Source: an uncultured Candidatus Saccharibacteria bacterium
GTDB taxonomy: Bacteria; Patescibacteriota; Minisyncoccia; Phycocordibacterales; PALSA-1337
Length of the DNA: 50,415 nt
NCBI GenBank assembly: GCA_964394505.1
Contig: CAYMXR010000002.1
Location: 2,494 to 52,908 of the forward strand
Direction: 5' to 3'
The notes beneath the pieces are model-generated. The model was not told where the DNA came from and made no database searches. It saw only the letters and a program-made list of their open reading frames with translations. This document shows, piece after piece, positions 40,105 to 46,100 of this stretch. Positions within the stretch are counted from its first letter, which is position 1, and the number at the start of each line of letters is the position of its first letter. The position numbers were made by a program, and so were the translations under genes.

Positions 40105-40171
40105 AGCACACTAGTTACCAAAATCGAAATTATTTGTCCGGTATTTTTGTGGTTATAGATCATTGAATAAA

Positions 40172-41311
40172 TCACAAAATAAAATCCAAATAATTACCTT
40201 CATGGATATTTGTCCATGTAGCAACCCTATAGCTTTCCTTCCATGAGGTCTTTGATTTGGCACCAGTTTTTTCTTTTAATGAAAATTCATAACCATTAAT
40301 GTGGTCGCTATATACTTCGACAAAATCTACTTCCGCTCCAGATAATTTACGCCAAAAATATATTGATTTATATGGATCAGTATAAGTATTGCGTTTAATT
40401 CTTTCAATAATCAAATAATTTTCCCAGAGGGCCCCCAAATCTCCACGGGTGTCAAGAGAATCAAAATTTTCAATGAGTGCATTACGGATACCAAGATCAT
40501 AAAAATAATACTTTTCTTTTTTTCGAATCTCATTTCTCAGGTTTTTAGCAAAAGATGGGAGAGGAAAAATTATAAAATTTTGTTCTAACAAATTTAGATA
40601 TCTTGAAACAATATTTCTACCAATAGAGAGTTTGGTGGCCAATTCGTTTATCGAAACTTCATTTCCGATCTGATAAGCCAAAAGTTTTAACAGATCTAAG
40701 ATTAATTTTGAATTTTTTACCTGTTCAAATGACAAAATGTCTTTCAAAAGATACCCATTTACAATGTTGGTTATAATTTCCTTCTTCTTATCAATGATTG
40801 GTTCCGTATAGACTGCAGGATAACGACCGAAACGCAAAGTAAAATCAAGATTGGAAATATAATCCTGGAGCCCGTCATTATTTACCTCTTTTTCCCATAA
40901 AGGCAACAGGTTTATAACATTCATTCTACCAACAAGCGGTTCTCCTACTTGTCCTGAAAGTTCGAAGGAAGATGAACCTGTGACAATTATTTTTAGGTTT
41001 GGTTTTGTATCAACAAGTAACTTCAAAGAAATCCCAACATTTGGTATAACATGTGCTTCATCTACAACAACAAGTGAAGCATCTCCTAATGCTTCATAAA
41101 GAATTTTCAAATTCATAGAGGAAAAAATTGCTTGTACATTTACATCCTCACCATTAAAAAACAAGATTTTAAGTGTCGAATTTTCTGAATTAATTTTTTC
41201 CAAATATTTCCTTACCAGAGACGACTTGCCAACCTGTCTTGCACCATAAATTACCAAAACTTTTCCAGCCTCAATCTTGTCTTCAATTCTGGCAAATCTT
41301 TGTATATACAT
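40172..41311 (-). CDS. AAA+ ATPase with C-terminal DUF4143-type domain
   Basis: Walker A GARQVGKSS, Walker B VVDEAH, then the DUF4143-like region. Start moved to the Met at 41311 because a strong promoter lies inside the longer track ORF. Confidence 0.75.
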   Translation of the reverse strand: MYIQRFARIEDKIEAGKVLVIYGARQVGKSSLVRKYLEKINSENSTLKILFFNGEDVNVQAIFSSMNLKILYEALGDASLVVVDEAHVIPNVGISLKLLVDTKPNLKIIVTGSSSFELSGQVGEPLVGRMNVINLLPLWEKEVNNDGLQDYISNLDFTLRFGRYPAVYTEPIIDKKKEIITNIVNGYLLKDILSFEQVKNSKLILDLLKLLAYQIGNEVSINELATKLSIGRNIVSRYLNLLEQNFIIFPLPSFAKNLRNEIRKKEKYYFYDLGIRNALIENFDSLDTRGDLGALWENYLIIERIKRNTYTDPYKSIYFWRKLSGAEVDFVEVYSDHINGYEFSLKEKTGAKSKTSWKESYRVATWTNIHEGNYLDFIL

Positions 41312-41317
41312 AAACCT

Positions 41318-41346
41318 AATATAGCATAATGACAAAATATGGTCAA
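41318..41346 (-). promoter_or_regulatory. Promoter TTGACC-N17-TATATT placed 6 nt before the ATG (leaderless-type arrangement)
   Basis: Minus strand TTGACC (41341..41346), 17-nt spacer, TATATT (41318..41323), then AGGTTT and ATG (41309..41311). Confidence 0.5.
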
Positions 41347-41506
41347 TTATTGTACCCCCGACATGCAAAATTCGAGTATAAAATGAAATATGGCTCAATA
41401 GCAGGCTTTTATTGACAAAAATATCCTTGAGTAAAAATTGTTAAGCCTGAGGATAACAAAATTAACACTGGAAAGGGATGTGTTTCTCGATCTAGCTCAA
41501 AACAAG

Positions 41507-43111
41507 TCACATCCCCACCATCTCCCCTGTTCTCTTCACACCACGGATGATGTCAGAGACGATGTCTAGGATGAAGGCGGTGATGAAGTCTAGCCAGGAT
41601 GGTAGTTTTGGCATGGAGATATCTACTGTGGTAGTTGGGATGTTTATGGTAGGGGCTTGGTAGTTAATCTTGGTTGAGATTTGGCCTGGTCTATATGTAG
41701 AGGTGTTTGTAGGTCTATTGGTGTTTGGAGGGGTGTTGTTTATGGGTGGGAGGAATCTATCTAGACTACAGGATGCTGTATATCCTCCGTTTAGACCTAG
41801 ACAGGACCAGTTGTACTTGGTGCTTGTGTCTTCTGTATCACTAAATGAGCCTTCTTTACAGGAGTTTAGGGTTGTAGCACAGAGTCCATTTGTTCCACCT
41901 GGTGGTGGAGGTGGTGTGGGAGTGGGTGTAGGGGTTGGATTGGGAGCGGGGGTTGGAGTTGGTGTTTCTCCGGGTGGAGGGGTGGGAGCTGGGGTGATAT
42001 CGGGGATGGGGGTGGGTGAAATAGTGTCCGTTGGTATACTTAACATATCGTCAACGATAGGCCAGATATTTTCAGAAAAATATTTTTTATAATCTTCAAG
42101 CGTGTATTCTGTGTAGCTAGAGCCAGCCCAACCACCCATCCACATTATAGTACCATCTGCACCACCATCTCTTATGAGATGATAAGTTCTGCGCATCAAA
42201 TCTAAACTAATAAAGGTCTTCGGGGATGTACCAGAAGGGTGATACAAATGCCAGGTAAATGGCATAATCTCCTTGTTTCCATACATAGAGGCGATACGAA
42301 CAGATTCTTGAATATTTAGTCTAATATATGTATCATTTCTTCTTTTTACAAGTTCGCTTGCTTCATCAGGGTAATGCTGATAAAGACTTGGGTAGAGAAC
42401 ATCGACAGCTTCCCAGAGCCAACCTAGTTGATTATTAATATTTGTTTGGCTTTGTAAATAATCGGTACTGTCAGGTCCACCAGTGAACCAATACACAGTA
42501 CGTGGGTAGTTATAGTAACCCCATTTAGCATTTGGACGTAGAGATTTGCCATATTGCAGGGTTTTCAGTAATATATCGTTAGCCGCAGCTTCAAATTCGA
42601 CTTTAGCTTGTGTCTCTAATTGAACATCCGTCCAATCTGGATGGTCTACTTTTACTTTATCTATTGATTTTTCACGATATATTGATGTTATTGATAAACT
42701 ATCCCAATCGGGCCAATAAAATTCGACATCGATTACCATGTATCCATCCCACCCTGGATCAGGAGCATAATAATTAACAGCTCGTCTAAACTGGTCTAAA
42801 TGAGAAGTCCAATTAATGTTTTGTGGAATGCCACCATATACACTTTTGTCTCCTTCATAGTATGGCCAATTAAAAGACCAATCGGTCATTACTTTAACAT
42901 TTTCCTCTACCCCATGACTAGCTGGCTCTATAGTACTGGCAATAGTTGGCATGGACATATTCATAACAAATTTAAAATTGCTACTTCCCCCCACCTGCGC
43001 TCCCTGTTTCCCTACATCGATATCGTTGGTGTTTAGATTGAATAGAAGGAATAGAGAAAGTGCTATGAATGAGAGAGAAATTGCTAGATGTTTGTATGAA
43101 TTTTTGATCAT
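41507..43111 (-). CDS. Secreted glycoside hydrolase family 56 (hyaluronidase-like) protein with Pro/Thr linker, 4-Cys module and C-terminal hydrophobic segment
   Basis: Signal peptide, then VYGGIPQN, MVIDVEFYWPDW (Asp-x-Glu at 42722..42730), DHPDW, SLRPNAKWGYYNYP, NNQLGWLWEAVDVLYPSLY and GADGTIMWMGGW. These are colinear with HYAL1/PH-20/bee-venom hyaluronidase motifs as I recall them. Confidence 0.8.
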   Translation of the reverse strand: MIKNSYKHLAISLSFIALSLFLLFNLNTNDIDVGKQGAQVGGSSNFKFVMNMSMPTIASTIEPASHGVEENVKVMTDWSFNWPYYEGDKSVYGGIPQNINWTSHLDQFRRAVNYYAPDPGWDGYMVIDVEFYWPDWDSLSITSIYREKSIDKVKVDHPDWTDVQLETQAKVEFEAAANDILLKTLQYGKSLRPNAKWGYYNYPRTVYWFTGGPDSTDYLQSQTNINNQLGWLWEAVDVLYPSLYQHYPDEASELVKRRNDTYIRLNIQESVRIASMYGNKEIMPFTWHLYHPSGTSPKTFISLDLMRRTYHLIRDGGADGTIMWMGGWAGSSYTEYTLEDYKKYFSENIWPIVDDMLSIPTDTISPTPIPDITPAPTPPPGETPTPTPAPNPTPTPTPTPPPPPGGTNGLCATTLNSCKEGSFSDTEDTSTKYNWSCLGLNGGYTASCSLDRFLPPINNTPPNTNRPTNTSTYRPGQISTKINYQAPTINIPTTTVDISMPKLPSWLDFITAFILDIVSDIIRGVKRTGEMVGM

Positions 43112-45877: not shown

Positions 45878-45904
45878 ATGATCTTATGTATCAAATACAT
45901 ATAG

Positions 45905-45913
45905 ATTATATCA
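45905..45913 (-). promoter_or_regulatory. Extended -10 promoter (TGATATAAT) for the tail-fibre-like gene
   Basis: Minus strand TGATATAAT about 27 nt upstream of the ATG at 45877, downstream of the secY hairpin. Confidence 0.4.
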
Positions 45914-45991
45914 TGTGACGACATTACGGGGGGGGGAATTTTGATGGGGATAGCGAGAAGATATTATCCTCAACATTACCCACACAGAACC

Positions 45992-46098
45992 AATCTAAAA
46001 TCTTAAATTTCAAATCTAAAATCTCAAATCTAATCGCAACGCGATCAAGATCTTTCTTTGACCTAAGATTTGAGATTTTAGATTTAATTTTTGAGATT
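45992..46098 (-). terminator. Long repeat-built hairpin immediately after the secY stop
   Basis: Perfect 20-bp stem AAATCTAAAATCTCAAATCT (46012..46031) with AGATTTGAGATTTTAGATTT (46066..46085). Flanking partial pairing and an inner small palindrome ATCGC-AAC-GCGAT. Arms are made of AAATCT-type repeats. Confidence 0.6.
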
Positions 46099-46100
46099 CT

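Follow-up and report, generated by a model that had tools for sequence, protein, structure and literature searches.

Gene order at the secY-adk junction

The DNA analysed here, called the window throughout, is a 50,415-nucleotide stretch of contig CAYMXR010000002.1, and all coordinates without a locus prefix are window positions. Its subject of interest is a set of three genes that lie between secY and adk. On the minus strand throughout, the order is S14(Z)-S8-L6-L18-S5-L15-secY (50270..46101), followed by the three inserted genes and then by adk-map-ndk. The inserted genes span 40172-45877 and encode a fibre-like protein with a Peptidase_S74 domain (gene 1, 45877..43139, 912 amino acids (aa)), a homologue of the glycoside hydrolase family 56 (GH56) enzymes (gene 2, 43111..41507, 534 aa) and an ATPase with AAA_14 and DUF4143 domains (gene 3, open reading frame (ORF) 41398..40172). 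A spacer of 223 bp separates secY from gene 1. An earlier reading of the bare sequence (the original prediction) had proposed the order rpsZ-rpsH-rplF-rplR-rpsE-rplO-secY, three genes on the same strand, and adk-map; the ORF listing, a Pfam profile search and the gene calls of a 96%-identical contig, L001, bear out both the order and the shared strand.

Upstream of the insert lies secY (46101..47390; Pfam SecY, E = 4.6e-100), the final gene of the spc-type string. Its product has 100% aa identity to SecY of L001 and is 67-88% identical to the SecY proteins of 80 Paceibacteria species representatives. Since its nearest relatives are metagenome-assembled genomes (MAGs) of Paceibacteria/Taylorbacteria, at 67-88% identity, the source organism is a bacterium of the candidate phyla radiation (CPR)/Patescibacteria. 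Downstream lies adk (ATG 40086, end 39493; Pfam ADK), the ancestral neighbour of secY, which has a promoter of its own (TTGGTA-17-TATAAT at 40121..40093) and is followed by map (39483..38716; Pfam Peptidase_M24) and ndk (38639..38031; Pfam NDK). The block from the adk promoter through ndk occupies 38031..40121.

Occupancy of the junction in related genomes

We compared the secY loci of 80 GTDB species representatives, in which adk, map and ndk were located by tblastn. In half of them (40/80) adk stands within 350 bp of secY, and the order in these 40 insert-free relatives is secY-adk-map-ndk. Another 22 carry an insert of 0.36-3.2 kb between the two genes, at least 0.7 kb long in 17 of the 22. 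No adk was present in the available downstream sequence of 10 representatives, at least two of which have rpsB after secY, and in 8 the contig ends within 1.5 kb of secY. Thus, 22 of the 62 representatives with both secY and adk on the contig are interrupted at this position.

The eight closest species (79-88% SecY identity) run directly from secY into adk-map-ndk, with gaps of approximately 35-165 bp. Because these species join secY directly to adk, the three-gene stretch is an insertion, and the lineage of the window gained it relative to them. The stretch is therefore polymorphic in its presence, being absent from the eight closest representatives and represented by a related cassette in L001. 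This comparison of synteny supports the insertion that the original prediction had proposed. Frequent interruption of secY-adk across the phylum, which the same prediction had regarded as evidence against an island, is in part what we observe within this clade.

The cargo at the junction is unrelated from one relative to the next. The 3.2-kb insert of locus L007 (83% SecY identity; CAIMKX010000050.1, 4814-7423) holds a complete diversity-generating retroelement, comprising a 241-aa target gene, a variable repeat (VR, 5406-5523), a template repeat (TR, 5865-5982) and a reverse transcriptase, and all 16 of its 16 TR/VR mismatches fall on an A in the template. Other inserts encode a 952-aa ATPase resembling TrwB and type IV secretion system (T4SS) coupling proteins (L024:11312-14170), an IS1595-family transposase (L029:11520-12443), a full-length serpin (L048:8203-9570, E = 5e-118), a pyridoxal phosphate enzyme (L051, L058 and L069) and a Bro-N protein (L016). 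In the window, the ORF and Pfam analyses found no integrase or transposase among the genes of 40.1-46.1 kb, and a search of the window found no tRNA near the insert and no direct repeats flanking it.

The hairpin after secY and the operon boundary

An AT-rich long stem-loop follows secY on the same strand (45990..46100). Inverted-repeat and fold analysis recovered the perfect 20-bp hairpin that had been noted at this position, with arms at 46066-46085 and 46012-46031 lying within 33-nt arms that are 88% complementary, and with the apex ATCGC-GTT-GCGAT at 46033-46045. The fold energy of the RNA is -38.8 kcal/mol (z = -5.96, 200 shuffles). No RNA family was found in the island with Rfam. We considered the hairpin as a boundary of the island and rejected it, because its 5' arm is shared with the insert-free relatives L002, L004 and L005 and is thus ancestral. 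The long hairpins that other relatives have after secY are unrelated to it, and related copies of the secY-type hairpin stand after gene 2 in L001 and in a second contig, L087, described below.

We read the hairpin as a native terminator or attenuator. The insert-free relatives keep a long hairpin after secY plus a TATAAT just before adk, which indicates that secY and adk are probably separate transcription units in this clade and would explain why cargo is tolerated between them. Bounded by the strong hairpin of secY and by the promoter that adk has for itself, the junction is a hot spot of repeated insertion. The secY-adk junction can accordingly be described as a natural operon boundary, broken in roughly a third of the relatives.

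Genes 1 and 2 form a cassette with conserved ends and variable heads

Two contigs of JGI sample 3300055001, L001 and L087, carry homologous pairs of genes 1 and 2. Cassette homology to the window sets in 86 bp ahead of gene 1 in both and goes no further than the stop codon of gene 2. The unit is a promoter plus gene 1 plus gene 2 (45963..41507), with conserved ends and two variable slots; the conserved blocks are 85-97% identical between copies, and the heads in between are unrelated.

L001 and the window agree at 96% over 5.4 kb, a stretch that begins in the ribosomal genes, takes in secY and reaches into gene 1. Similarity is lost after approximately 300 codons of gene 1, comes back over the S74 region at 85%, is lost again, and returns at 97% over the last 135 codons of gene 2, ending at the stop codon. 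Gene 1 of L001 encodes 1238 aa with a GDSL esterase head, and its gene 2 product (P0002, 719 aa) has a head for which no Pfam or PDB relative was found except for an Ig-like stretch. In L087 the homologous pair lies between ftsW and lepA, at another locus than secY. Identity in this copy is 95% over a block that starts 86 bp before the start codon and takes in the first ~278 codons of gene 1, 86% over the S74 region, 75% over the junction of genes 1 and 2, which includes the gene 2 signal peptide, and 85% over the gene 2 C-terminus; its gene 2 encodes a 1432-aa Laminin_G_3 (LamG) protein. An NCBI protein, P0003 (725 aa), places a right-handed beta-helix head on a gene 2-type C-terminal module at 99% identity. 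The C-terminal 135 aa of gene 2 are therefore 97-99% identical to those of P0002 and P0003, which bear other heads, and the count of heads on this anchor is based on P0002, P0003 and L087. The C-terminal module matched nothing in a metagenome scan, a protein search with it gave three candidates without a match, and an exact-sequence look-up of the window GH56 protein and of P0003 returned no record.

These patterns suggest that the species group has the cassette in several copies or alleles, and that recombination through its conserved ends may swap the two head slots. The gene 2 slot would take a GH56, beta-helix, LamG or unknown head, and the gene 1 slot a GDSL esterase or others.

Downstream of its cassette, L001 continues (L001:12160-22160) with a second secY-type hairpin and then with dihydroorotate (DHO) dehydrogenase, enolase, L31 and RF1; these genes do not lie near secY in any relative compared.

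Gene 1 encodes a fibre-like protein with an S74 domain

Comparison with the homologues in L001 and L087 and with protein P0166 divides the gene 1 product into blocks. A conserved N-terminal part (aa 1-~305), which includes a hydrophobic signal or anchor (aa 7-30), is followed by a variable head (aa ~316-572), the S74 intramolecular-chaperone region (Pfam match at aa 629-675, with Ser626 and Lys631), a conserved post-S74 segment with a Cys pair (aa 703-782) and a tail rich in Pro and Thr (PT-rich; aa 791-912, with the PT-rich linker at aa 791-905). The cysteines are 46/58, 607/623 and 767/782. Over the first ~300 aa, the window, L001 and L087 copies are 88-90% identical to one another, and the heads are unrelated.

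The description of gene 1 as tail-fibre-like holds, in that Peptidase_S74 (PF13884) scores above its curated cut-off (E = 7e-7; 29.9 bits versus 22), and the domain is also matched in the L001 and L087 homologues. The segment S626-L-R-S-T-K631 has the S-x4-K spacing of the Ser-Lys dyad, and at least 90% of 25 homologues retain the two residues in the corresponding columns (S337/K342 of alignment A1). In a structural model the S74 part reaches a predicted local distance difference test score (pLDDT) of approximately 90. Its best fold matches are the chaperones of T5 (4uw8) and K1F (3gw6) and the Bdellovibrio fibre Bd2439, all of them weak (E above 1e-3; 2.4e-3 to 5e-2 with low TM for 4uw8 and 3gw6), and a PDB sequence search with the S74 region gave a chance match only. 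By analogy with such proteins, the S74 domain may drive trimerisation and self-cleavage at Ser626, and gene 1 would encode a long fibre composed of a conserved N-terminal base, a variable head and an intramolecular-chaperone domain.

The gene 1 family is large in Paceibacterota, where NCBI names its members "tail fiber domain-containing protein". They have GNVGIGTTSP-type repeats, a shared S74 region and varied central domains (GDSL, beta-helix, Pectate_lyase_3, DUF5011). One homologue adjoins a large serine recombinase (L135), and another stands before a SpaA-like protein between housekeeping genes (L136). We also observed a 54%-identical homologue of the S74 region (L088:2416-5847; ERZ724079 NODE_2145) on what resembles a conjugative or plasmid-like element, which carries RepA_N/HTH_36, a ParE toxin, a TrwB-like ATPase, a Replic_Relax relaxase and GmrSD.

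Gene 2 encodes a GH56 homologue

The assignment of gene 2 to GH56 was confirmed by the Pfam profile Glyco_hydro_56 (PF01630; E = 4.8e-47, 161 bits versus a cut-off of 23.2, profile positions 57-328 of 335) and by a PDB match to HYAL1 (2pe4; E = 1.9e-33). The 534-aa protein starts with a hydrophobic segment, followed by the GH56 catalytic domain (aa 81-353, with D128, E130, Y200, Y244 and W324), a PT linker (aa 365-405), a module of four cysteines (aa 409-448; Cys 411/418/437/448), a Pro/Thr/Asn-rich stretch and a C-terminal amphipathic helix (aa 503-534) that is too little hydrophobic for a standard membrane anchor. PT linkers and small Cys modules had been predicted for the products of both genes 1 and 2, and both features are present.

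The domain aligns with human HYAL1 and with bee-venom hyaluronidase. V-I-D128-V-E130 matches V-I-D-W-E of HYAL1, WGYY200NYP, LYPSLY244 and IMW324 align as well, and E130, Y200, Y244 and W324 are nearly invariant in alignment A4. In HYAL1 we take D129, E131, Y202, Y247 and W321 to be the catalytic D-x-E pair and the positioning Tyr, Tyr and Trp. An AlphaFold2 model has a pLDDT above 90 over the barrel, and a Foldseek search with it returned 2atm, 1fcq and 2pe4 (E = 1e-25 to 7.5e-24; target TM 0.63-0.82). The fold is that of the GH56 hyaluronidases HYAL1, PH-20 and bee and wasp venom enzymes (TM 0.79-0.82 for 2atm and 1fcq; 24-26% identity), with the Asp-x-Glu pair and the positioning Tyr, Tyr and Trp retained. 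Unlike the mammalian enzymes, gene 2 lacks an EGF-like C-terminal domain and has instead the PT linker, the four-Cys module and the amphipathic C-terminus, and unlike the animal enzymes it belongs to a CPR bacterium. From the alignment and the model, gene 2 is predicted to be a catalytically intact GH56 endo-beta-N-acetylhexosaminidase, which would be borne as an enzyme head on the PT linker and the conserved C-terminal module. The relatives of the source organism are groundwater, lake and fen MAGs, and the natural substrate is unlikely to be hyaluronan.

In an exhaustive HMMER search, 1337 cluster representatives reached E <= 1e-3 and only 23 reached E <= 1e-30. The nearest matches are metagenomic, with at most 55% identity, and look-ups of ten of the best gave six metagenome, MAG or unnamed-assembly sequences and four animal proteins. 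Prokaryotic GH56 genes have varied contexts, one of them an exopolysaccharide (EPS) gene cluster, and two encode archaeal pilin-type signal peptides. Some of the prokaryotic proteins have a similar C-terminal beta-rich extension that ends in a short V/I-rich motif, which we read as a putative type IX secretion signal. Bacterial GH56 occurs in free-living polysaccharide degraders and has already been noted in genome papers (e.g., Acidobacteria UBA6911). N-termini resembling class III, archaeal pilin-type signal peptides are those of the GH56 homologues L082:8001-9599 (GCA_964578845.1; MEKRGLSQIVSTVLL...) and L118:8001-8900 (Ga0081527_100002; MKRGLSGIITIVLL...). Both lie on low-GC contigs, of 284 and 362 kb, respectively, and L082 also carries the archaeal-named Pfam family HVO_A0261_N; these are possibly GH56 genes of small-genome archaea. 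To our knowledge, no bacterial GH56 enzyme has been characterised.

The cassette promoter and homopolymer runs

The promoter region of the cassette (45878..45963, minus strand) forms the 5' edge of the homology; it is 95% identical to L087 9915-10000 and is conserved in L001. The extended -10 that the original prediction had assigned to gene 1 was confirmed as TGATATAAT at 45913..45905 and is conserved in these two homologous loci, within the overall motif TATCCCCAT...C(n)GT...TGATATAAT. A run of nine C residues (45936..45928) occupies the -35 position of this promoter, and a run of eight G residues (44522..44529, minus-strand coding sequence of the gene 1 head domain) is a candidate slippage site. 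These are the only two G/C runs of at least 8 nt in the 50-kb window, and the loci of the relatives contain only six in 1.23 Mb. Within an otherwise ~95% identical region, the promoter C-run measures 9 nt in the window, 7 in L001 and 10 in L087. The more distant homologue in L135 keeps the promoter frame, but not the C-run.

Homopolymer-controlled, phase-variable surface genes include those of the Bordetella fim poly-C promoters and the poly-G contingency genes of Neisseria and Campylobacter. Like them, the cassette has a C-run in the promoter spacer or -35 of the fibre gene and a G-run in coding sequence, and its run length varies (7, 9, 10). The pattern is a putative signature of slipped-strand phase variation, in which slippage in the promoter C-run and the coding G-run may turn expression on and off.

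Gene 3 is a candidate defence gene that stands apart from the cassette

Gene 3, with its promoter, occupies 40172..41346 on the minus strand. Its identification as a DUF4143 AAA+ ATPase with a promoter of its own was upheld, both by Pfam (AAA_14, E = 5e-25; DUF4143, E = 3e-35) and by a promoter scan (TTGACC-17-TATATT with an upstream TG, 41346..41318). The start codon is likely ATG 41311 and not TTG 41398. Walker A (GARQVGKS) and Walker B (VVVDEAH) motifs are readable in the sequence. The protein matches the PADLOC family PDC-S01 (PDLC04789) almost from end to end (E = 2.7e-126, profile positions 7-373 of 375). PDC-S01 is a very common ATPase fused to a PD-(D/E)xK domain, for which an antiviral role was predicted by "guilt by embedding" and is not yet validated (PMC12988326). 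In keeping with that family, gene 3 gives a full-length profile match, stands alone in a region that varies between genomes and has a promoter to itself.

The original prediction had grouped all three genes as one acquired surface or host-interaction module. Genes 1 and 2 do look like one such module, but gene 3 does not belong to it, in that the homology between cassette copies ends at the gene 2 stop codon and gene 3 is absent from the copies in L001 and L087. Given this absence, its GC content of 32% versus 42-43%, its own promoter and its match to a defence family, gene 3 appears to be a PDC-S01-type candidate anti-phage gene acquired separately from the cassette. Homologues of the DUF4143 ATPase, with 38-42% identity, also occur near the ribosomal and secY-adk-map neighbourhood in two other species (L045:13035-14252 and L030:5693-6814), one directly after map and the other upstream of secY.

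Composition

The composition of the island was profiled against the rest of the window. Its tetranucleotide deviation is the largest in the window, with z up to 6.8. Codon usage given the amino acids (z = -3.3, -2.7 and +2.9 for the three genes) and the GC content of third codon positions (GC3; 0.27-0.35) are within the spread of the other window genes. Gene 3 has a GC content of 0.324 (GC3 0.265), versus 0.42-0.43 for genes 1 and 2. The encoded proteins are very rich in Thr, Ser, Pro and Gly, and this protein composition is most likely what the tetranucleotide signal reflects. The expected deviation was thus found in tetranucleotides but not in codon usage or GC3, and it does not point to a foreign donor. 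Given the native range of codon usage and GC3, and with no integrase, tRNA or direct repeat, the inserted genes appear to derive from the gene pool of the lineage itself rather than from a distant donor.

Other features of the window

Several further features were observed in the window. At 47420-48760, L15 follows S5 directly, without an L30 gene between them; such an absence of L30 has been reported for CPR bacteria. ARAGORN found a tRNA-Ile gene (TAT anticodon) at 27815-27887. Such a tRNA is uncommon in bacteria, in which AUA is usually decoded by a modified CAU anticodon. A tmRNA gene lies on the minus strand at 32515-32933 (Rfam RF00023, 79 bits) and is absent from the ARAGORN output. A 286-aa ORF at 24195-25055 has a PemK/MazF-like toxin domain that is confined to its C-terminal 100 residues, and its N-terminal 180 residues carry no domain assignment.

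Discussion

The most probable account of the 6-kb stretch, and one that we hold with reasonable though not high confidence, is that it consists of two independent insertions at a permissive operon boundary. One (45963..41507) would be a self-contained, mosaic two-gene cassette for recognition and depolymerisation at a host surface, and the other (41346..40172) a PDC-S01-type candidate anti-phage gene, an ATPase plus PD-(D/E)xK domain, that arrived by a separate acquisition. The cassette is of the S74 fibre adhesin and receptor-binding kind, which is known elsewhere and is found here in CPR bacteria. From phage receptor-binding and depolymerase modules and from the fibres of Bdellovibrio we infer its function by analogy: the fibre would recognise a glycan on the surface of a partner or host cell, and the partner enzyme would cut an N-acetylhexosamine-containing surface polymer and so give access.

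The closest cellular parallel is the S74 subgroup of the mosaic adhesive trimeric (MAT) fibres of Bdellovibrio bacteriovorus, in which the base is conserved, the tips are exchanged and the S74 domain undergoes autocleavage (Caulton et al. 2024, PMC10769870). Like these, gene 1 encodes a large (~1,000 aa) exported cellular protein with paralogues; its N-terminal base is conserved, its shaft is long and rich in repeats, its distal domains are exchangeable, and its S74 chaperone/protease has a Ser...Lys dyad. Conservation of the base refers to the cassette's own copies, as compared in the window, L001 and L087. The MAT fibres are proposed to recognise surface glycans of another bacterium, and the cassette may serve the same use. 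Unlike the MAT fibres, which belong to a Gram-negative predator, the cassette occurs in CPR/Paceibacteria with a Gram-positive-like envelope, and its fibre gene is paired with a second gene that bears an enzyme head on a conserved anchor.

Phage fibres and tailspikes (the K1F endosialidase, 3GW6; the T5 L-shaped fibre, 4UW8) share with the cassette the S74 domain, the conserved attachment end, heads for receptor binding or glycan degradation that are swapped (SGNH/GDSL esterase and beta-helix types among them), and mosaic recombination between close relatives. In contrast to them, the cassette is chromosomal between housekeeping genes, with no other phage genes nearby, its proteins have Sec-type N-termini, and it has no PHROG or phage-database match. 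We know of no GH56 head in phages.

Several observations weigh against this reading of the cassette. Gene 1 lacks the +1 Asp of canonical SDxxxK, and the family consensus is S-S-x-R-x-K; the best fold match of the S74 region (E = 2.4e-3) is not significant; and the head falls below a pLDDT of 50 in the monomer model. Approximately 190 residues, made up of the Cys-pair segment and the PT-rich tail, follow the chaperone region in gene 1, unlike in the phage proteins and the MAT fibres. As for switching, the differences in C-run length that were observed lie between copies or strains, which sets the case apart from the established phase-variable genes. A rearrangement or a mis-join of L001 at the repeated cassette is possible and makes the case for alleles at one locus weaker; because its 3' flank matches no secY neighbourhood, L001 cannot serve as clean proof of an allele at the identical position. 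The original prediction had looked to co-occurrence of GH56-like and S74 genes elsewhere, but searches with the S74 region, two other gene 1 segments and the PDC-S01 protein gave no match in 46 metagenomic GH56 loci or in three GH56 loci on contigs (L082-L084). The association of GH56 with S74 is therefore not general, and the pairing is unique to this locus. Finally, scavenging of extracellular nutrients fits the same domains.

The last point leads to the alternative that survives best, although we consider it rather improbable: the cassette would display extracellular hydrolases for scavenging polysaccharides or lipids, and the diversity of heads would be a diversity of substrates. The identified heads are hydrolase- or lectin-like (GH56, GDSL esterase, beta-helix, LamG), and bacterial GH56 genes are, as noted above, carried by free-living bacteria that degrade polysaccharides and, in one case, lie within an EPS gene cluster. 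However, the S74 fibre architecture is a hallmark of adhesins and receptor-binding proteins (PMC10769870), strain-level swapping of heads and contingency-type homopolymers are typical of surface-interaction loci, and the cassette is not accompanied by transporter or catabolic genes.

The view of the original prediction, that the three genes are one horizontally acquired island that arrived together from a foreign donor, is largely refuted and now seems very unlikely. It draws on the contiguity of the genes, their common strand, their absence from the closest species and the strongest tetranucleotide deviation of the window. Against these stand the end of cassette homology at the gene 2 stop codon, the absence of gene 3 from L001 and L087 and its difference of 10 GC points, codon usage in the native range, the lack of integrase, att site or direct repeats, the interruption of the junction in about a third of relatives, and a gene 1 family that is endemic to Paceibacterota.

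A prophage or tailocin remnant, consisting of a tail fibre and a depolymerase, would account for the Peptidase_S74 domain, the NCBI family name and the homologues beside a serine recombinase (L135) and on a conjugative-like element (L088). We rejected this explanation, which we rate as highly improbable, on the database results: genes 1 and 2 have no match in PHROGs, gene 1 has no tblastn match among 50,697 phage records, and IMG/VR yielded only one S74 match, at 30% identity, and one 26-residue GH56 fragment. Moreover, the window has no other phage genes, and the N-terminal export signals and PT linkers of both proteins are those of typical cellular surface proteins. A contig mis-joined through the multi-copy cassette repeat is just as improbable, for although copies in a related sample are 85-95% identical over stretches of 0.4-0.9 kb and the downstream flank of L001 is unrelated to any secY neighbourhood, both flanks of the window (secY and adk-map-ndk) are ancestral neighbours, and a chimera would thus need two compensating mis-joins.

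The reading of two independent insertions has consequences for both the locus and the families involved. In this clade, accessory genes routinely insert at a junction that is regarded as strongly conserved, a point to bear in mind when "islands" are called from synteny. With the GH56 head, an enzyme family known mostly from animals reaches a surface protein of CPR bacteria, which also makes a compact bacterial GH56 available for biochemistry. More tentatively, and as a possibility to which we give less weight than to the two insertions themselves, the cassette may be a multi-copy chromosomal "receptor-binding cassette" of Paceibacteria, in which an S74-chaperoned trimeric fibre and a tethered glycan depolymerase, with heads reshuffled between strains through the conserved ends and switched by slippage, would be the cellular equivalent of phage tail-fibre/depolymerase modules and would govern the choice of host cells to which these episymbionts attach. 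If this is true, the GH56 head would provide the first case of a bacterium turning a hyaluronidase-family enzyme on another bacterium's envelope. Little is known of how ultrasmall CPR bacteria locate their hosts and attach to them, and the publications consulted centre on the type IV pili of Saccharibacteria. Cassettes with conserved ends, exchangeable heads and possible switching would thus provide testable candidates for determinants of host range in a large uncultured group, the Paceibacteria.

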